Positions 15,010 to 52,864 of a DNA stretch of 64,000 bases are shown in pieces; the stretch's first letter is position 1; each line of letters starts with the position of its first letter. The notes below the pieces were generated by a model. It did no database searches. It saw only the letters and a list, made by a program, of their open reading frames with translations, and was not told where the DNA came from. The DNA is taken from contig DATHKX010000057.1 of NCBI GenBank assembly GCA_035488835.1, positions 21,149 to 85,148 of the forward strand, read 5' to 3'. Position numbers and translations under genes: made by a program. This DNA is from Gemmatimonadales bacterium (GTDB lineage: Bacteria; Gemmatimonadota; Gemmatimonadetes; Gemmatimonadales; GWC2-71-9).

Positions 15010-15051
15010 TGGTCGCGACAGGACTCCAACCTGTGACCTCTGGCATGTGAG
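15010..15051 (-). other. tRNA-like 3'-half fragment (anticodon loop to discriminator; Val-CAC-like)
   Basis: Reverse complement reads CTCACAT-GCCAG-AGGTC-ACAGG-TTGGAGT-CCTGT-CGCGACC-A. The T-arm is 16/17 identical to the tRNA-Ser(UGA) T-arm at 18168-18184. No matching 5' anticodon-stem strand or acceptor strand lies upstream. The T-loop has G where the conserved C56 is expected. Confidence 0.35.
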
Positions 15052-15093
15052 AGTCGTAGTTCTCGTGATGCCAACAAAGAGTGGAGGAAAACC

Positions 15094-15942
15094 ATGGCAT
15101 ACCAGGCCGAAATCAGTCGTAAGAACCCGGGTTGTTTCTTGTTTTTGGTGGACCAGTCAGAGTCGATGGAAGACCCTTTTGGCGGCGGAGAGGCTGGCAG
15201 ACAGAAGGCCGAAGAGCTCGCGACGATACTCAACAAGCTCATTCATAACCTGTGCATCCGTTGCTCCAAGTCGGACTCTATGTACGACTACTTTCATGTC
15301 GGTGTGCTGGGCTACAGCGAAGCGAGCTGTAAACCAGCGCTCGGCGGTGAACTGAGCGGGCGCTCTCTGGTACCGATCAGTGAATTGGCCAATAAGCCGT
15401 TGCGCATCGAAGACAGGGTAAAGAAATCGGACGATGGCGCCGGCGGAGTCATGGACCAAACCGTCAAATTTCCAGTCTGGTTCGATCCATACTCGAAGGG
15501 GGGCACTCCGATGTGCGCCGCGCTCAAGGAGGCAACCCAGATTACCCAGACGTGGTGTCAGGAGCATCCGAACGGCTTTCCGCCGATCGTTATCAACATC
15601 ACCGACGGCGAGGCAACGGATGGAGATCTCGTTGCCGAGGCGCGTAAATTAACGGCGGTCAGTGGCGAAGACGGTTCGGTGTTGCTCTTCAACATCCATC
15701 TTTCGTCGACGGCCGGACCATCGATCGAATTACCGGGCAACGGCAACAAACTGCCGGATCAACATGCCAAACAGCTCTTTGAAGCCTCATCGACGCTCAC
15801 ACCATTCATGGTTGCACGCGCGACAGAGCTGGGTATGCCGGCCGAGGAAAACTCTCGAGGATTCATCTTTAACGCGCAACCGTTGCACGTAATCCATTTT
15901 CTCGATATCGGCACGCGACCGGCGAATGTGCATCTGCGCTGA
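15094..15942 (+). CDS. von Willebrand factor A (vWA) domain protein, TerY-like
   Basis: RBS GGAGG upstream. MIDAS elements are present: DQSES (DxSxS), GGTPM and the TDGEATDG Asp. 282 aa. Confidence 0.85.
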   Translation: MAYQAEISRKNPGCFLFLVDQSESMEDPFGGGEAGRQKAEELATILNKLIHNLCIRCSKSDSMYDYFHVGVLGYSEASCKPALGGELSGRSLVPISELANKPLRIEDRVKKSDDGAGGVMDQTVKFPVWFDPYSKGGTPMCAALKEATQITQTWCQEHPNGFPPIVINITDGEATDGDLVAEARKLTAVSGEDGSVLLFNIHLSSTAGPSIELPGNGNKLPDQHAKQLFEASSTLTPFMVARATELGMPAEENSRGFIFNAQPLHVIHFLDIGTRPANVHLR

Positions 15943-15953
15943 GTACCACTGCA

Positions 15954-16754
15954 ATGGGCACCTCCGGCGGTGAAGCACGCCACGCGGCCAACGAGTGCGA
16001 CATCAAGGTCTTCTGCTGCCCAAAGCTGGGCAACAGCCTTGAGGAGTACGAGGATGCCTGGGCGCATCGGCAAACTCGTCCCCCGGTCGGCATCCGCGTG
16101 GCGGTGGCTGACGGCGCCACCGAAAGCAGTTTTGCCAAGCTATGGGCCGTGCTGTTGGCCGAAAGCTATGTGCGAAGTGAGGTCACCGGGGCAGAGTTTT
16201 TTGCGCGGTTGAACCCGGCGCGCCGCCTCTGGCGGCGAAGATTAGCGGGCCGACCTCTCCCCTGGTTCGCTAGCGAAAAGGCCGAGCAGGGGGCCTTTGC
16301 GGCTTTCCTCGGTGTCCAGATTGACGCTCACACGAACCGTTGGACGGCGCTGGCCATGGGCGACTGTTGTCTTATGCAGCTCGATAACGTCGGGAAAAGG
16401 ATGCGGGTGGTCGAAACGTTTCCCTTACAGAAATCTTCGCAATTCACGATGAGCCCTTATCTGATCGGCTCCAGGTCGAATGGGGAATCACTGAACGAAC
16501 GGATACAAATCAGCAAGGGCAGCCTGCGCGATGGAGACATGCTGCTGCTCGCCACGGATGCGATGGCCGCCTGGCTGCTTAAACGGCATGAAGAGGGGCG
16601 ACCATTATGGAATTGGCTTTACCGGAAGCTCGGCACGCCTGAGAGCTTTGCCGCGATCGTCGCCTACGGCCGCAAAAATGGATTGCGCAACGACGACTTC
16701 ACCCTTGTCCGTGTCATTCATCACGATTCACGGGTTGAAGCGAAGGAGAGGTAG
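15954..16754 (+). CDS. PP2C-family protein phosphatase-like protein
   Basis: Metal-binding-type motifs EEYEDAW, VAVADGATES, AMGDCCL and LLLATDAMAAW occur in PP2C order. The gene starts 11 nt after the vWA gene. Confidence 0.72.
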   Translation: MGTSGGEARHAANECDIKVFCCPKLGNSLEEYEDAWAHRQTRPPVGIRVAVADGATESSFAKLWAVLLAESYVRSEVTGAEFFARLNPARRLWRRRLAGRPLPWFASEKAEQGAFAAFLGVQIDAHTNRWTALAMGDCCLMQLDNVGKRMRVVETFPLQKSSQFTMSPYLIGSRSNGESLNERIQISKGSLRDGDMLLLATDAMAAWLLKRHEEGRPLWNWLYRKLGTPESFAAIVAYGRKNGLRNDDFTLVRVIHHDSRVEAKER

Positions 16755-16756
16755 CG

Positions 16757-17800
16757 ATGCGTGCATGGCCAGACCTGACTGAATACCATGAGGCGGTTCA
16801 GCACCCGCCAAAGGCTTTTGCCGACCCAGGATTGAAAGCGGTCACCCTCGAGCTCGATCGGTTCGGTATGCCCAAGCCGGCCACCGGCGGCAACGCCGTG
16901 GTCTACAAGGCCAACGAACCGGGCGGACTTTTGACATTCAAGAAGACCTGGGCAATTCGCTGCTTCCTGCGCCCGATCAGCGACCATGCCGAACGTTATG
17001 AGGCGATCTCCAAACATCTTCGCAAGGTGCGCCTGCCCTATGATGTCAATTTTCAGTTTCTCAAGCAGGGCATTCAAATTCGCTCCAACTGGTTCCCTAT
17101 CGTCAAAATGCAATGGGCCAAGGGCGACCTTCTGCACAGTCACATTGAGAAGCATCTAGGCTATCCGGCCGCACTGGCGGCATTGCGGGTAAAATGGGTC
17201 ACACTTGTTCGCCACCTCGAAGCCGCCCAGGTGGCGCACGGCGATTTACAGCACGGTAATATCCTGGTGCGCGGCGGATCGATCCAGTTGGTGGACTACG
17301 ACGGCATGTGGGTGCCGGCCTTACGGGGCCGCCACGCCACGGAAATCGGCCACCGTGCCTACCAACATCCCGAACGGAGCGAGCAAGACTACGGCCAAGA
17401 GATTGATCGTTTTTCAGCTCTCGTCATTTATCTATCGCTGGCGGCGCTGGAGAGGGATGTCACCCTGTGGGAACGTTTTCATACCGGCGACAATCTGATC
17501 TTCGTGCGCGAAGATTTCCAGCAGTTGGGTCGATCGGCAATTTGGCAACAATTACGCCGTATCGGATCGGGGGAAATCGATCAGCTCGCCGCTGTCGTGG
17601 CGGCCATGGCGCAGCAGCATCCGATGAAGGTCAGCAATCTCGATAGCGTTCTCCAAAATCCGGCGAGCTACAAGTTCCCTAGCTCGATTCCGGCGTCGAC
17701 TCCGCCCCAGCGAGTCGCTCCCAAGCCGGCGCGCGTGCCGACGCCGCCAGTGCCGAGTTGGATGAAAAAGGGCGGTTATCGTGATCATTCGGATGACTGA
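16757..17800 (+). CDS. Ser/Thr protein kinase-like protein with Pro-rich tail
   Basis: RBS GGAGAGG upstream. Gly-loop-like TGGNAVVYKA, catalytic loop HGDLQHGNIL, a DYDG (DFG-equivalent) motif and GHRAYQHPER are present. The gene starts 2 nt after the PP2C stop. Confidence 0.8.
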   Translation: MRAWPDLTEYHEAVQHPPKAFADPGLKAVTLELDRFGMPKPATGGNAVVYKANEPGGLLTFKKTWAIRCFLRPISDHAERYEAISKHLRKVRLPYDVNFQFLKQGIQIRSNWFPIVKMQWAKGDLLHSHIEKHLGYPAALAALRVKWVTLVRHLEAAQVAHGDLQHGNILVRGGSIQLVDYDGMWVPALRGRHATEIGHRAYQHPERSEQDYGQEIDRFSALVIYLSLAALERDVTLWERFHTGDNLIFVREDFQQLGRSAIWQQLRRIGSGEIDQLAAVVAAMAQQHPMKVSNLDSVLQNPASYKFPSSIPASTPPQRVAPKPARVPTPPVPSWMKKGGYRDHSDD

Positions 17801-18159
17801 GGATCATCGGCGGCATTGCTCGTCGCTGACCCTTTCCATCCACTCGACATTTTTGCCGTAGTGACTGCGTCGGCCGGATCGGCTTGCGGCACACGCTCGG
17901 CAGTACAAACCCAGCGCCTCACGAGACACCGAAGCCCGTCACGTAACTCTAGCCCCGCACACAGCGCCGGAATAGCAACGCGCGCGCGTGCGGAATCATG
18001 AGCGCGCGGCTCGTCCGGTCGCGGCGGGCGCACATGATGCTTGTCCACCATGCCGGAAGGGTGATCGCACGGGCTTTGACGCGATCCTCGGCTCGACGGC
18101 GGCGAGTGGAGGCGCCTGACCCCAATGGCCGCGACGCGGCAAGTTGTTGCGGTAGAAAG

Positions 18160-18243
18160 CGGAGGGCACAGGACTCGAACCTGTACGGGCTTGCGCCCAG
18201 CGGTTTTCAAGACCGCCGCCTTACCAGTTAGGTCTAGCCCTCC
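18160..18243 (-). tRNA. tRNA-Ser (anticodon UGA)
   Basis: Reverse complement reads GGAGGGC-TA-GACCTAACTGGTAAGGC-G-GCGGT-CTTGAAA-ACCGC-(variable arm GGGCGCAAGCCC)-ACAGG-TTCGAGT-CCTGT-GCCCTCC-G. The acceptor, anticodon and T stems pair. The D-stem has one A/G mismatch. Confidence 0.85.
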
Positions 18244-18245
18244 CG
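18205..18245. repeat. 41-bp direct repeat, copy A (tRNA-Ser 5' end through anticodon loop, plus 2 nt)
   Basis: tttcaagaccgccgccttaccagttaggtctagccctcccg is identical base for base to 19283-19323. The flanking bases differ on both sides. Confidence 0.95.
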
Positions 18246-18262
18246 TGTTACTGCGCTTGAAC

Positions 18263-18667
18263 TTAGCGGCTCAGTGGTACCGTCAGAAGGCCCGATTTTG
18301 TCGCTCCTTTGCCGTTCGGCGCGGCAAAGCGCCGACCGACGGCGGCCGCAAGGTCCGCTTCATCAATCACGTTGTACCTGTCAAACATCGCGTGCGTGCG
18401 CCAGCCGCACAGTCGCATAATCTCACCCTCCGATACGCGGCGCCCGACACCGCCGCGCTGGCCGGGTTCAAAATTCACGGCCAACAACACGGCATCCCCG
18501 GCGTAGAGGGCGCACGTCAGCACCAAGTCCCGGCTCGTCGCGGTTGCGCAAACGCAGGTCGGCCCGCGCTGTGTCACGGCTTCGCCTTCTCTTGCTGTCG
18601 GAGCCATTCGCGCAACTGGCCCAACGGTCGCTCCAAGGACGGCGCGTCCTTCATCGCACTGATCCAC
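18263..18667 (-). pseudogene. Tyrosine recombinase (integrase) remnant
   Basis: RRVSEGEIMRLCGWRTHAMFDRYNVIDEADLAAAV matches the integrase C-terminal Tyr box. The expected HxLRR box is degraded to FEPGQRGG. The N-terminal two thirds are absent, and the upstream part overlaps another small ORF. Confidence 0.7.
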
Positions 18668-18816
18668 CGCTGCGTGAGCGGAGCGTCGCCGTGTCCCGTG
18701 GGCAGCCAGCCGTTGCGGTAGTGCTCGGTCAGGGCCAGCTCGCCAATGCCCACGAGCCGGAACAGTTGGTGCGCCTGCGCGGCGGTGAGCACGAGGCTAA
18801 AGGTTGGCTCGGTCAT
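18574..18816 (-). CDS. Small hypothetical protein (80 aa) of the relic element
   Basis: An internal ATG is preceded by GGAGA at appropriate spacing. The product begins MTEPTFSLVLTAAQAHQLFRLVG. No family recognised. Confidence 0.45.
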   Translation of the reverse strand: MTEPTFSLVLTAAQAHQLFRLVGIGELALTEHYRNGWLPTGHGDAPLTQRWISAMKDAPSLERPLGQLREWLRQQEKAKP

Positions 18817-18865
18817 TCTGTCTCCGTTGCGTCGTCGCGTTTTGGCGCGCAGTTTCAGCGCGAGC

Positions 18866-18891
18866 GCCGATAATAGTGGCCGATAATAGTG
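18866..18891. repeat. Perfect tandem 13-mer (gccgataatagtg x2) in a divergent intergenic region
   Basis: 18866-18878 and 18879-18891 are identical. Each copy contains a TAATAG -10-like hexamer. The repeat lies between the divergently oriented small genes. Confidence 0.85.
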
Positions 18892-18930
18892 AAGGAAGGA
18901 TTGAGGGGCATAACAAAGGGAGGTAGCCCA

Positions 18931-19176
18931 ATGGCCGACAAGGTACCATGTCCGGTATGTGGCGCAGCCTCTGACGGCGGCTACAGCATCGGTGACAGCA
19001 CGGTGTTCAAGTGTCTGCATTGTGGCGGCTATCGCTTGGCGGGAACGGTTATCGCGTTGTTTGAGAAGGGCACCTTGCGGAAGCCAGACCCGAAGGCGTT
19101 CCTGGACCTGGTGCGGCGCAAGCGCGGCAGCTCGCGCGAGTATCCCGTCATAATCCCGGCCGACCTTGGCGGATAA
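18931..19176 (+). CDS. Small zinc-ribbon protein (81 aa)
   Basis: RBS AGGGAGG lies 7 nt upstream of the ATG. CPVC...CLHC forms a four-Cys ribbon. The track ORF starts at an upstream GTG at 18889. Confidence 0.5.
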   Translation: MADKVPCPVCGAASDGGYSIGDSTVFKCLHCGGYRLAGTVIALFEKGTLRKPDPKAFLDLVRRKRGSSREYPVIIPADLGG

Positions 19177-19260
19177 AACTTTGTCGTAACTTTGCCGGCG
19201 GCGCGCTGCGGCACGCGTCAGGCGCGGTCCTACGGCGTCACAGTTAGCTATAAAAGCAAC

Positions 19261-19286
19261 GGCCCCGCTTGGGGCCGTTGTCTTTC
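19261..19286 (+). terminator. Intrinsic-terminator-like hairpin
   Basis: GGCCCC-GCTT-GGGGCC followed by gttgtctttc. It sits immediately before repeat copy B. Confidence 0.45.
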
Positions 19287-19323
19287 AAGACCGCCGCCTT
19301 ACCAGTTAGGTCTAGCCCTCCCG
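19283..19323. repeat. 41-bp direct repeat, copy B (orphan tRNA-Ser 5' half)
   Basis: Identical to 18205-18245. No tRNA 3' half follows it. Confidence 0.95.
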
Positions 19324-19359
19324 AACTGGAGGCAACCTAGCCGCGCGCCCGCGCGCCGG

Positions 19360-21693
19360 TCAACGCTCGGTCGGGGGGATGTACCCGTAGCTGGTGTTCT
19401 TGAACACCGAGTCGGCGAGCAGCAGGGCCCGGTTCGCGACCTCCGGGTTGGTGGACCGCAGCGCCTGCGCCAAAGACTGATACAACAGCCCGTACGTCGC
19501 GAGGATCCCTTCCGACGGCCGGTCCACCCAGCCGCGCGGGCGATGGCGCGCCGCGGCGTCCGCGTGATACACGCCGAAGGCGAGCGCCTCCGTGCGCGGC
19601 AGGTTCACGAAACCGAACACGGACATCAGCTTGATGCTGTCCCGCTCGGCGAGCGGCTGCGAGTGCAGCTTGCGCGCGAAGCCGTGCCCTTCGAGGTACC
19701 CGGTGAGGCCGAACTGGTCGGCGTACGGGCCCACCGTGCGCGAGTAGTAGATCGGCCGCTTGCCCATCTGGTCCTTGATCGCCTGAAGCACGATCACGTC
19801 CGCGCGCTCGAGATACTGGCGGCCGAGCTGCTGGGGATCGAGCGTGACCGTGACCCCGCCCAGGTTCGCGTACGTCTTGTGCTCGCCGAGCCAATACACA
19901 GGCTGCAGCGAGTCCTGCACGTAAGTGTCTGAGAAGCTGAGCAGCTTGCCCGTGGGCTTGGGCCAGGCACGGCCCCGGTAGATCGCGGGCGCCGTCGTGG
20001 AATCGAAGTTCGCAAGCGGCCGGCGCTGCAGCTGGCGCACATACCAGTCGGTGTTCGCGAGCGACAGGTTCACGACGGTCACGTCCTGGCGAACGTGCTC
20101 GACCTCCTGGGCGTACCACAGGGGGAAGGTGTCGTTGTCGCCCGCCGTCACGAGCACGCCGTAGGGCTCGACCGACTGCAGCAGGTCGTACGCGAAATCG
20201 CGCGCCAGGGTCTCACCCTTGCGCGAGGCGGTGAGATGATTCCCCCACAGCGGGATGAGCGCGAGTGCGAGCACCGGCGTCGCGAGCATCCAACGGCGGG
20301 CGCCGTCGGGCACGCGGAGCTCGAGGCCCTCGCTGATCCACTCCATGAGGGTCGCGAGCCCCATCCCGACCCACACACCCCACAGCGCGAACGACGCGAT
20401 GAAGAAGTAGTCGCGCTCGCGCACCTCTCGCGCGAGCTGCTTGTCGGCGTCCCACGAGTAGCCGTACTTGAAGTTCAAGTAAAAGATCAGGAGCAGCGTG
20501 AACGTGGCCATGAGTACGGTCATCGCGATCGCGCGGCGGCGGTCCGCCAGCCAATGGCGCACCGCGCCAAGCAGGCCGACCGCCCCGAACAGCACCGCCA
20601 GGCCGTACTGAATGTTGCGGGGAAAATCACGTCCCCATTGCCAACTGAAATACTGGAACCACATCCCGAGCTGGGCCCACAACGTCGCCTGCCGCTCCCA
20701 CACGGGCGGCTTGCCGTACTGCTGGCGAGTGAGCACGTCCCACAGCGCCTTCGCCGTCGTCGGCTCGCCTTCGTTGATGGGTGGGAAGTGCGCCGCGCGG
20801 AGCGGGAGGAAGAGGTAGACCGACACGCCCACGATCGCGACCAGCAGCACCGCGACCGCGAACTCCCAGTTGCGCGCCTGGATGAACGCGTACGCCAGCG
20901 CGCCGAGGAACAGCACGGCGGCGAGCTTCAACGGGCCCGAATTCTCGAGCCCGCTCGCCACGATCAGCGCGTAGACGCTGCAGAACACGAACCACTGCGA
21001 CCACTCGACCCGGCGCGCGGCGTCGTCCGCCGGCCGCTGGTCCTTGAGGAGCGGGTACAGCAGCACCAGGACCACCGGCCCCACCAGCACGCCCATCATA
21101 TGGTTGGTGGACGTCAGGGCGAGCAGGAACACGATCATCAGGAGATGATGGTCGTGCCCTTCGCCGGCGGGCTGATCGTCCCAGCGCACGATGAGCCACA
21201 GCACCAGGGCGATCGAGAGCAGCGACAGCGTGTAGACCTTCTCGTTCACCACCGACTGGTTCCACACGGTGAACGCCGTGGCCGCGGCGAGGGCCCCCGC
21301 TACGGCGGCGAGGCGGCGCGGCAGCCGCGCGGGCACCCACGCCCGCATCCAGCGCTCGCTCACCAGGAACCAGCACCCGGCCGCGATCGCGCTCGTGACG
21401 GCCGCCAGCAAGTTGATCCGCATGGCGTACCCTGCCGCGAGCGGCAACAGGCCCCACGTGTGGGCGATCAGCACGAACAGCGGATTGCCGGGCGGATGCG
21501 GGATCCCGAGCACGTAGGCGGCGGCGATGTATTCCGAGGTGTCCCAGAACTGCGTGGTGGGTGCGAGCGTCAACACGTACAGCACCAGGGCGCCCAGGGC
21601 CACGAGGCCCGCCCAGAGATACGGCGGACCCTCGGGTGTCACCGCGGCGTACGAAGGCTGGGAGAGCCGCTGAGGCTCGGTCATGGTCGTCAT
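19360..21693 (-). CDS. DUF2723-family polytopic membrane protein (glycosyltransferase-like)
   Basis: N-terminus ...[31 protein letters not shown] is typical of DUF2723. Many TM segments precede a large C-terminal soluble domain. 777 aa. Confidence 0.8.
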
Positions 21694-46828: not shown

Positions 46829-47786
46829 CGCGCCGGTCACTCCGCCTGGGCTCAGGGGGTGAGTTCGACCGCCTGCGCGCCATTTTCGCGGCGCTCGGCG
46901 CCGCGGGCCGCGACCTGGGTGACGATTGCGCGCTGCTCCCCGTCGGCGGCCGGACCATCGCGATCAGTATCGATCTGTCGCTCGAAGCGGTGCACTTCCG
47001 CACCGACTGGCTCTCGTTTCGAGAGATCGGCTGGCGCGCGACGGCGGCCGCATTGTCGGATCTCGCCGCGGACGGCGCGACCCCGCTCGGGGTCCTCGTT
47101 TCCCTCGGCGTGCCCGGCAACCGGCAACGGCGTCCCGGCAACGCCTCACCCGCCGTTCAGATCATGGCGGGAGTGGGATCCGCCGCCCGCAGCGTCGGAG
47201 CCAAGGTGCTCGGGGGCGACATGGCGCGCTCGCCCCGCTACCTCGTGGACGTCTGCGTGCTCGGGCGCGTCGCGCGGCCGGTGCGGCGGAGCGGCGCGCG
47301 TCCGGGTGACGGGCTGTGGGTCACGGGGCGGCTTGGTGGTGCGGGGCTCGCGCTCGCCGCGCTCCGGGCGGGCCGTCGCCCAGCGCCGACTGTACGGCGC
47401 CGCTTCGCCCGTCCGGTACCGCGCATCGCCGCGGGGCGCTGGCTGGCGCGGCGTGGAGCGCGCGCCATGATCGATATCTCCGACGGGCTGGCGGGGGACG
47501 CGGGGCACCTCGCGGCGGCGTCGGGCGTCGGGATTGCGATCGAGCTGGAGCGCGTTCCGTGCTGGCCGGGTGTCACGCCGCGCGCGGCCGCGGCGAGCGG
47601 CGAGGAGTACGAGCTGCTGGTCGCCCTGCCGCGCAGCTTCGGAACCGCGGGCGCCCGCGCCTTTCGCCGCGCCACGGGGCTGCCCTTGACGCGCATCGGC
47701 GCGTGTACCGCGGGCCGCGGCTTGCGGATCACCCACGAGGGGCGACTGATCACGCCTCCCCGCGGCTTCGATCATTTCCGCGCGCG

Positions 47787-52426: not shown

Positions 52427-52769
52427 CAGGGTCCCCCGACGTTGAAAGGCGCACTCTCGGTGCCATCCAGCGGGGAGCTGCGCGCCACCAGGGTGTAATC
52501 GCTGATCCCCGACTGGTCGATGCTCAGGTCTGCGAACAGTGCTCTCATGGCCTGCTCATCGAGCCTGCAAGCGTCGCACCGCGTCGGTGCCGGTTCGCGA
52601 GGCCGGTTGGGGCGGATCTCGAGGGTCGGCAGGCGCCACGTGTTGGATCGGTGCAACGGGTGTTTCGGGCGCCCAACGGTCTGGGGGCCTTTGTTGCATT
52701 CTGCGGGCGCCAGCTAGGCCGCCACTCCCGCCGTCGCGGCGGGCCCGCTAGGTTCTTCCCCTGCAGCTC

Positions 52770-52843
52770 GGCGGCGTAGCTCAGCTGGTTAGAGCAGCGG
52801 AATCATAATCCGCGGGTCGTCGGTTCGAGTCCGACCGCCGCTA
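52770..52843 (+). tRNA. tRNA with CAU anticodon (elongator Met, or Ile2 if lysidine-modified)
   Basis: GGCGGCG-TA-GCTCAGCTGGTTAGAGC-A-GCGGA-ATCATAA-TCCGC-GGGTC-GTCGG-TTCGAGT-CCGAC-CGCCGCT-A. It lacks the initiator hallmarks (no C1/A72 mismatch, no GGG/CCC anticodon stem). Confidence 0.85.
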
Positions 52844-52864
52844 CTGAGTAGCACTAAGGAGCCC

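Follow-up and report, generated by a model that had tools for sequence, protein, structure and literature searches.

A tyrosine-integrase relic upstream of tRNA-Ser(UGA) and the probable replacement of the tRNA 5' half by the element in a Gemmatimonadales bacterium

The stretch of DNA analyzed here (the window; 64,000 nucleotides (nt), positions 21,149 to 85,148 of contig DATHKX010000057.1, assembly GCA_035488835.1) comes from a short-read metagenome-assembled genome (MAG) of a soil Gemmatimonadota bacterium (3.14 Mb, 210 contigs) and carries a perfect 41-nt direct repeat at its tRNA-Ser(UGA) gene. The 1,037 bp between the two copies (18246-19282) are an insertion, and this insertion belongs to a family of tyrosine-integrase elements that are found on the 5' side of tRNA genes. 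The two 41-mers are very probably the attL and attR cores left behind when such an element integrated at the anticodon loop of tRNA-Ser(UGA) in a reversed configuration, in which the element lies upstream of the tRNA and supplies its 5' half.

A repeat search of the window and the sequence itself agree with the first-pass annotation of this DNA, which had been made from the sequence alone, that 18205-18245 and 19283-19323 are identical and that the bases on both sides differ; when the comparison is widened to 57 nt, identity drops to 88%. The exact 41-mer occurs twice in the 3.14 Mb searched, both times in the window, and the expectation for such a repeat arising by chance in 64 kb is about 1e-15. 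According to ARAGORN, tRNA-Ser(tga) occupies 18159-18243 of the minus strand, has its anticodon at position 35 and is encoded by a single gene in the assembly; that a class-II tRNA lies here is confirmed by a match to the tRNA clan in Rfam. Numbered along the tRNA, the repeat extends from -2 to 39, i.e., from nt 1 through the whole loop CTTGAAA (33-39), so that its annotated extent, from the anticodon loop to 2 nt beyond the tRNA 5' end, was correct. The features that frame the insertion are:

18159 to 18243, minus strand: intact tRNA-Ser(UGA) (ARAGORN, Rfam), native in its 3' half and in about 34 nt beyond it, with the 5' half inside the identity block
18205 to 18245, minus strand: proximal 41-bp block (att core), tRNA -2 to 39, up to the final base of the anticodon loop
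19283 to 19323, minus strand: distal 41-bp block; this is the native 5' half, now displaced, where the tRNA lay ancestrally
19334 to 19363, minus strand: native tRNA promoter, TTGACC 19363-19358, 18-nt spacer, TAGGTT 19339-19334
19360 to 21693, minus strand: TMEM260-like glycosyltransferase gene (Pfam PF11028, E 2e-41), the chromosomal flank that defines the empty site

The genus comparison set comprised 28 genomes, 26 of which contain an orthologue of the TMEM260-like gene. Five of them (G009, G006, G002, G011, and G024) have an empty site: an intact tRNA-Ser(UGA) lies 39 nt past the TMEM260-like stop codon, and blastn aligns these loci to window positions 18160-18245 plus 19283-21600 with one 41-mer overlap. 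The five empty sites identify 18246-19282 as the insertion and the copy at 19283 as the native 5' half, displaced together with its promoter. G006 matches 18126-18245 at 93%, including 34 nt downstream of the tRNA, which shows that the 3' half and the trailer are chromosomal. The arrangement TTGACC-N18-TAGGTT-12 nt is kept before the displaced half, in all five empty-site genomes and in G020; TAGGTT lies 12 nt before the displaced half and TTGACC overlaps the stop codon of the upstream gene. The uninterrupted locus that the first-pass annotation had proposed to look for in relatives thus exists in five congeners, and its presumption that the copy at 19283 retains the native promoter is borne out by the promoter common to this copy and the empty sites. 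In G020 and G021, the tRNA-Ser(UGA) site is occupied and the displaced half adjoins the TMEM260-like gene; the inserts and arm motifs differ, so this site has been hit more than once.

These data also bear on a simpler explanation, namely that the second 41-bp copy arose by local duplication or as an assembly artefact unrelated to site-specific recombination. Beyond the MAG origin and the identity of the two copies nothing speaks for this, and it is contradicted by the five empty sites, by the different inserts in G020 and G021, by the integrase relic and the arm-type repeats inside the interval, and by nine elements which, as described below, share the same geometry at six tRNAs. The comparative data already refute this explanation, which we regard as extremely improbable, and the earlier description of the repeat as an att pair rather than a local duplication is supported by the empty sites, by the integrase relic inside, and by the flanking arm-type pairs.

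The insertion contains the following features, for which an element on another contig of the same genome, C65, served as reference:

18260 to 18288, minus strand: element-borne promoter-like block with putative function, TAAGTT 18265-18260, 17-nt spacer, TTCTGA 18288-18283
18263 to 18478, minus strand: C-terminal relic of a tyrosine integrase, about 70 codons, including the GW...Y catalytic-tyrosine motif (from the translation)
18295 to 18313, minus strand: integrase-side putative arm-type pair, GGCAAAGgagcGACAAAAT, inside the integrase tail, a presumed binding site
18532 to 18863, minus strand: segment 94% identical to C65 45688-46020 (blastn), holding an 80-aa open reading frame (ORF) at 18574-18816
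18931 to 19176, plus strand: 81-aa zinc-ribbon ORF with a weak Pfam Zn_ribbon match (E 0.007), specific to the relic
19178 to 19196, minus strand: distal putative arm-type pair, GGCAAAGTtacGACAAAGT, with octamers GGCAAAGT and GACAAAGT 11 nt apart
19250 to 19280, minus strand: predicted intrinsic terminator (GC-rich hairpin plus T-run; terminator scan), directly after the displaced 5' half

Read in the tRNA sense, the relic leads from the displaced half through the hairpin, the octamers, the Zn-ribbon ORF (on the opposite strand), the 80-aa ORF and the integrase tail with its octamers to TTCTGA-N17-TAAGTT and the tRNA. The integrase relic, whose tail reads ...CGWRTHAMFDRYNVIDEADL... in translation, is not a functional gene. 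Its ORF has no match in Pfam; tblastn aligns it to the C65 integrase with 77% amino acid identity, and nucleotide identity is 84% over 100 bp. The 80-aa ORF is common to the window and the intact C65 element (98.8%, tblastn), belongs to no Pfam or PHROG family and has no homologues in elements other than that on C65, and the Zn-ribbon ORF has no homologue in the genome or in related elements and no PHROG family. The hairpin of the predicted terminator has a 10-bp stem with a dG of -38.7 kcal/mol and a z-score of -4.25; it reads in the direction of the tRNA, and the plus-strand ORF is closed by it as well. Between the 80-aa ORF and the Zn-ribbon ORF, at 18866-18891, we observed a perfect tandem duplication of a 13-mer (GCCGATAATAGTG twice) which starts where the identity to C65 stops and, judged by its sequence, could be an operator or a promoter in the divergent region.

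Two further loci in this genome are related to the relic:

C65 40264 to 47290: intact sibling element at tRNA-Gln(UUG)
1339 to 1640 of the window, minus strand: sister relic at tRNA-Ser(GCU) (tRNA 1339-1429) with about 60 integrase C-terminal codons; TTCCAC-N17-TAGGTT precedes the tRNA

The C65 integrase is encoded by a 344-aa frame (Pfam PF00589, E 3e-15) that ends 2 nt before the tRNA-Gln(UUG) 5' end. Its catalytic positions R, K, H-x-x-R, and Y are conserved (alignment A1), and an N-terminal SAM-like domain is represented by weak matches. At 6.8 kb upstream of tRNA-Gln, the first part of this gene, nt 1 through the anticodon loop, is repeated as a perfect 38-nt copy. The window relic matches both ends of the C65 element in the same order and thus corresponds to such an element minus approximately 5 kb. 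A second integrase C-terminal relic is located beyond the distal att of the C65 element (47196-47286), which makes the locus a tandem array in mirror image. Among the cargo genes of the C65 element are those for a TacA-like antitoxin, next to which lies an ORF of 166 aa, and for a response-regulator receiver protein, as well as the 80-aa ORF found also in the window.

At tRNA-Ser(GCU), the integrase-then-tRNA layout recurs as the first-pass annotation had noted, with the integrase C-terminal relic co-oriented and directly upstream of the tRNA. The arm repeats of this sister relic are two copies of GGCAAAGT at 1481-1500. A search up to 12 kb from the sister relic gave no displaced 5' half; its distal att is lost.

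A further possibility is that the window relic is a miniature non-autonomous element which can still be excised and moved by a cognate integrase acting in trans. The relic has kept both of its arm pairs and cores as well as the terminator intact, and the arm motif of the related C65 integrase, CGGGCAAGT, differs from GGCAAAGT by one to two bases. However, we found no full-length integrase with the GGCAAAGT motif or with tRNA-Ser specificity in the genome, and the C65 frame has no ATG, GTG, or TTG ahead of the conserved TWW(M)DY N-terminal strand, so that this integrase, from its sequence, may use an internal Met as its start or have been damaged recently. We therefore consider continued mobility of the relic very unlikely.

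The C65 integrase was used to search 61 related genomes and gave 17 matches. A co-oriented tRNA lies directly downstream of the integrase in 15 of these, the remaining two being at contig ends, and the tRNAs targeted at the 15 loci are Gln, Trp, Cys, Leu, Ser, Phe, or Lys. Ten loci were extended upstream, and seven of them contain perfect 5'-half direct repeats of 36-46 nt at a distance of 1.4-13.6 kb. Together with the window and C65, these seven elements from relatives make up a set of nine, with the same geometry at six different tRNAs. The identity block stops exactly at the last loop base in six of the nine elements and deviates by -2 to +4 nt in the others; complete related elements are 5.0-13.6 kb long. 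In this genome, none of the tRNAs has a classical 3'-half repeat of at least 30 nt on the contig that carries it. The full-length relatives that the first-pass annotation had suggested searching for are thus at hand, and the intact family members, on C65 and in the seven relatives, all carry the 5' half, as had been deduced for the window element from its position upstream of the tRNA. For the local integrase lineage, the 5'-half rule therefore applies family-wide.

The element ends share further features. An element-specific pair of 8-9-mers, 11-12 nt apart, is located at -73/-62 from tRNA nt 1 in eight of the nine elements, inside the integrase C-terminal tail, and a matching motif pair is present again at approximately +85/+96 beyond the core (8/9). 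The motif differs between elements (examples are CGGGCAAGT, CGGCACAG, CGGCAAAC, GGGGATAG, and TCGTGCCA), and the two arm-type pairs in the window (18295-18313 and 19178-19196) represent a degenerate version of the family pattern. In six of the nine elements, a strong hairpin followed by a T-run lies immediately after the displaced half in the tRNA sense. In sequence, the element ends look like a lambda-type attP with arm-type sites on both sides of the core, and a circular element would join arms, promoter-like block, tRNA 5' half, terminator, and arms.

A wider search with a multi-sequence integrase alignment as query yielded 80 loci, whereas the single C65 integrase as query yielded none. 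The relatives belong to Gemmatimonadota/Gemmatimonadales MAGs, and at 33-41% identity the integrase family extends to Acidobacteriota, Nitrospirota, Binatia, Rokubacteria, and deltaproteobacterial lineages. At 59 of the 80 loci, the 3' end of the integrase directly adjoins a tRNA, 44 of them convergent with the integrase (classical) and 15 co-oriented (reversed). Two classical controls (L151 and L152) have 3'-half repeats that cover tRNA positions 30-94 and 31-77, starting 2-3 nt before the loop, and also carry arm repeats in the integrase tail. The first-pass annotation had named an attP with the 3' half as the finding that would speak against its model; the intact close elements carry the 5' half, as the model has it, whereas distant members at 33-41% identity use the 3' half.

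On a maximum-likelihood tree of 87 integrases, the orientation label requires 12 changes (bootstrap range 12-14). At least nine of these are forced by well-supported branches, and either state is monophyletic in 0 of 200 bootstrap trees. At least nine switches among 64 loci suggest that, relative to the arms, the core at the anticodon loop can be re-set either way round. The closest relative with the classical layout, L071 (3340-3602), is located at tRNA-Pro(ggg) within an otherwise reversed Gemmatimonadota clade; it has two copies of the arm repeat GGCAAACA and a AACTTCAAG motif within a 48-nt spacer. Within the genus, displaced 3' fragments of tRNA-Ser(UGA) (positions 29-33 to the end) were observed 1.4-3.8 kb downstream of the gene in G022 (contig C214, loci L200/L209), G001 (C50, L203/L210), and G023 (C207, L199/L211). 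This indicates that tRNA-Ser(UGA) is used from both sides within the genus, each time at the anticodon loop.

The reversed configuration poses a question that the usual one avoids, namely how the tRNA is transcribed after integration. In the window, the native tRNA-Ser(UGA) promoter is now 1.1 kb away and behind a predicted terminator. Of the 43 tRNA genes of this genome, 17 have a TAnnTT hexamer whose end lies 8-20 nt upstream, compared to 0.3% expected per gene, and elsewhere in the 120-nt tRNA upstream regions the hexamer occurs only four times. This enrichment marks the host tRNA -10 position. TAAGTT, TAGGTT, or TAACTT is found at exactly this position in 17 of 19 integrase-tRNA junctions; in the window, TAAGTT overlaps the stop codon of the integrase, and 16 nt separate it from tRNA nt 1.

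The fate of this block after loss of the integrase can be followed at two tRNAs. In 14 of 18 complete genus genes (L161-L182), tRNA-Phe is preceded by CACTCCCAC-N17-CCGCTAAGTT-N17, with the two blocks 90-100% conserved and a variable spacer. Five of the 14 (G001, G007, G027, and two G025 contigs; four in the alignment plus one contig-edge copy) still have the integrase tail and/or arm repeats directly upstream of the block. In the other nine genomes, including this genome's C105 (16940-17060), the sequence changes to unrelated DNA 2-3 nt upstream of the first block. At tRNA-Ser(UGA), the upstream region is of the element type in about 15 of 24 genus genomes, and the TTGACC-type native promoter is kept in six or seven; in G027, G012, G015, G007, G008, G022, and G023 the upstream region is eroded down to the block. 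Conservation of the block after integrase decay at both tRNAs argues for an element-borne promoter rather than an integrase-binding site. From the position and conservation of the motif, the terminator behind the displaced half and the single-copy state of the tRNA, we infer that tRNA-Ser(UGA) is driven by the element-borne TAAGTT block, in line with the dependence on transcription from the element that the first-pass annotation had proposed.

Several points weigh against the integration model or its promoter part. The 41-mers are identical, hence the element-derived copy is assigned by flank comparison only, and the genome is a short-read MAG. The -35-like hexamers (TTCTGA, TTCCAC, and TCCCAC) match sigma-70 poorly. 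A scan of 17800-19500 with the sigma-70 consensus returned no promoter; the scan also missed the conserved native promoter and is thus uninformative for the TAnnTT -10 of this phylum. Finally, L071, in which the tRNA is convergent with the integrase, retains the related AACTTCAAG in the same spacer, so that part of the conserved block may be a protein-binding site of attP; the hexamer of L071 lacks its TA.

The integration could therefore be correctly described while the tRNA is transcribed by read-through and not from TAAGTT, the block being a site for an accessory protein or the integrase in attP. Transcripts would then start at a promoter in the divergent region 18817-18930 or leak from the native promoter through the hairpin. 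The frames of ORF82 and of the integrase relic are co-oriented with the tRNA, which fits this explanation, as do the weak -35-like hexamers and the motif kept by L071 in a layout where it cannot serve the tRNA. However, the tRNA-Phe block survives alone in 14 genomes, with unrelated DNA directly upstream in nine and no internal promoter left, and the same erosion to the block is seen at tRNA-Ser(UGA) in the seven genomes named above, although an attP binding site is not expected to stay conserved after the death of the element. In addition, TAAGTT occupies the host tRNA -10 position, and L071 lacks the TA of the hexamer. Transcription by read-through thus appears unlikely, and we favor a promoter brought in by the element.

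Other upstream regions deviate from this pattern. The tRNA-Phe genes of G019, G021, and G008 have a different junction, and GTCCCACTGT-like tandem repeats in G019 and G008 suggest, by their sequence, another type of element; one divergent tRNA-Phe copy has a canonical TTGACG-N17-TAATAC promoter. At L208 (G012:C32) and L194 (G025:C68), tRNA-Ser(UGA) is preceded by TGGGCAAA/TGTGGGCAAAC tandem repeats without TAAGTT, again a different type of junction. In this genome, tRNA-Met(cat) at 52770-52844 (upstream region 52700-52770), tRNA-Leu(caa) on C79, and tRNA-Leu(tag) on C102 have element-like upstream blocks (CCACTCCCGCC...CCGCTAGGTT, CCCCTTCTACGGGG...GCGCTAAGTT, and ...TTGCTAAGTT, respectively). 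No integrase is detectable at these three tRNAs, and the blocks may be older promoter scars.

Taken in the tRNA sense, the attP of the element that entered tRNA-Ser(UGA) would have comprised the integrase tail with two arm-type sites, the promoter-like block, tRNA nt 1 to the loop, the terminator hairpin, and two more arm-type sites. Crossover in the shared anticodon loop would place the element on the 5' side of the tRNA gene, with the native promoter and 5' half staying beside the TMEM260-like gene, capped by the putative terminator of the element, and the native 3' half joined to the promoter and 5' half supplied by the element. A later deletion of about 5 kb, including most of the integrase gene, would have left the 1,037-bp non-autonomous relic. 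Crossover within the loop, binding at the arm-type sites and termination at the hairpin are deduced steps of this model, whereas the insertion, its ends, its family and the empty site are shown by the comparisons.

Integration at the anticodon loop reportedly corresponds to sublocation 'A' of Williams in 2002. One boundary of the identity block in the window is at the anticodon loop, as in this sublocation, and the empty site in five congeners joins both flanks with a single 41-mer, as expected for a site-specific insertion. The anticodon-loop class comprises 2083 Islander islands. Among 3919 islands, Islander lists 159 with a 5' tDNA fragment compared to 3760 with a 3' fragment, i.e., approximately 4%, and its configuration filter accepts a 5' fragment upstream of the full gene (PMC4383910). 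In PMC6563490, recombination on the 5' side is called 'considerably less frequent', with reference to Zhao & Williams 2002 and to archaeal cases (Krupovic & Bamford 2008; Gaudin 2014; Cossu 2017; CalSub-E1 in tRNA-Ser). The first-pass annotation was thus right in calling this the unusual side of the tRNA, in the sense of a rarer configuration, but the configuration is not unprecedented.

Like the 5'-fragment islands of Islander, the window element lies upstream of an intact tDNA with a directly repeated 5' end fragment (41 nt, tRNA nt 1-39) upstream of it. It differs from them in its length of 1,037 bp, below the 2-200 kb range of Islander, in the lack of an integrase gene with PF00589 on board, and in its host, an uncultured Gemmatimonadales lineage; because of its size and missing integrase, the Islander filters would pass over it. 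An on-board integrase is present in the C65 sibling and in the elements of the relatives. Since only about 70 integrase codons are left, the window copy is a relic of a member and not a complete member, and the locus is a decayed member of a known minority class. With classical anticodon-loop elements, the family shares the integrase family, the crossover sublocation, and an attP plan with arm repeats that lie in the 3' tail of the integrase, some 60 nt away from the end of the tRNA. Classical elements, however, carry the 3' half, sit downstream and leave the native promoter in charge, whereas in the window family the segment derived from the tRNA points the other way with respect to the integrase gene and the arms, and the spacer is filled by a promoter-like block. 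The archaeal proviruses and plasmids at the 5' part of tRNAs, as cited in PMC6563490, belong to another domain of life and use other integrase types. In the literature examined, the 2002 papers excluded, we found no statement of an attP that combines promoter and terminator, of the survival of a promoter block as a scar, or of the frequency of orientation switches in one integrase family.

As a tentative generalization, about which we are slightly more doubtful than confident, integration on the 5' side could act as a one-way promoter replacement for essential tRNAs. Decay would leave a block of about 48 nt, most species of the genus would run tRNA-Ser(UGA) (~15/24) and tRNA-Phe (14/18) in this way, and the core would be re-settable either way. 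The Ser-GCU, Gln, Leu, and Met tRNAs may also be affected by such promoter replacement. The loci form a natural deletion series, in which the integrase and arm sites erode and the promoter-spaced two-block motif beside the tRNA stays. Tools will overlook such scars if they expect a 3' fragment, an integrase on board or a length of at least 2 kb. The labile choice of the tRNA half bears on the evolution of new attachment sites and on the use of integrases in genome engineering. At tRNA-Ser(UGA) in the window, what is left in practice is unremarkable, namely a dead remnant of 1 kb.

On the 3' side of tRNA-Ser(UGA), the window contains a vWA/PP2C/kinase (TerY-P-like) cassette at 15082-17802. A cassette of this kind lies between the tRNA and the TMEM260-like gene in other genomes, in the same orientation in G015 (C31 7085-10205, L156) and inverted in G012, G020, and G004; besides L156, the loci compared were L157, L159, and L160. 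Neither single inversions nor tandem integrations explain the cassette order of the window from the orders in G015, G012, G020, and G004. At the vWA end of the window cassette, 15010-15051 resembles an orphan tRNA 3' half of type I with the loop CTCACAT, which is called by neither ARAGORN nor Rfam and whose T-arm is identical to that of tRNA-Ser(UGA) in 16 of 17 positions. In G004, tRNA-Cys follows 57 nt after the kinase end of the cassette, and in G020 and G004 the vWA end is about 300 nt from the distal att hairpin. By its arrangement, the cassette resembles cargo that the tRNA elements can move.

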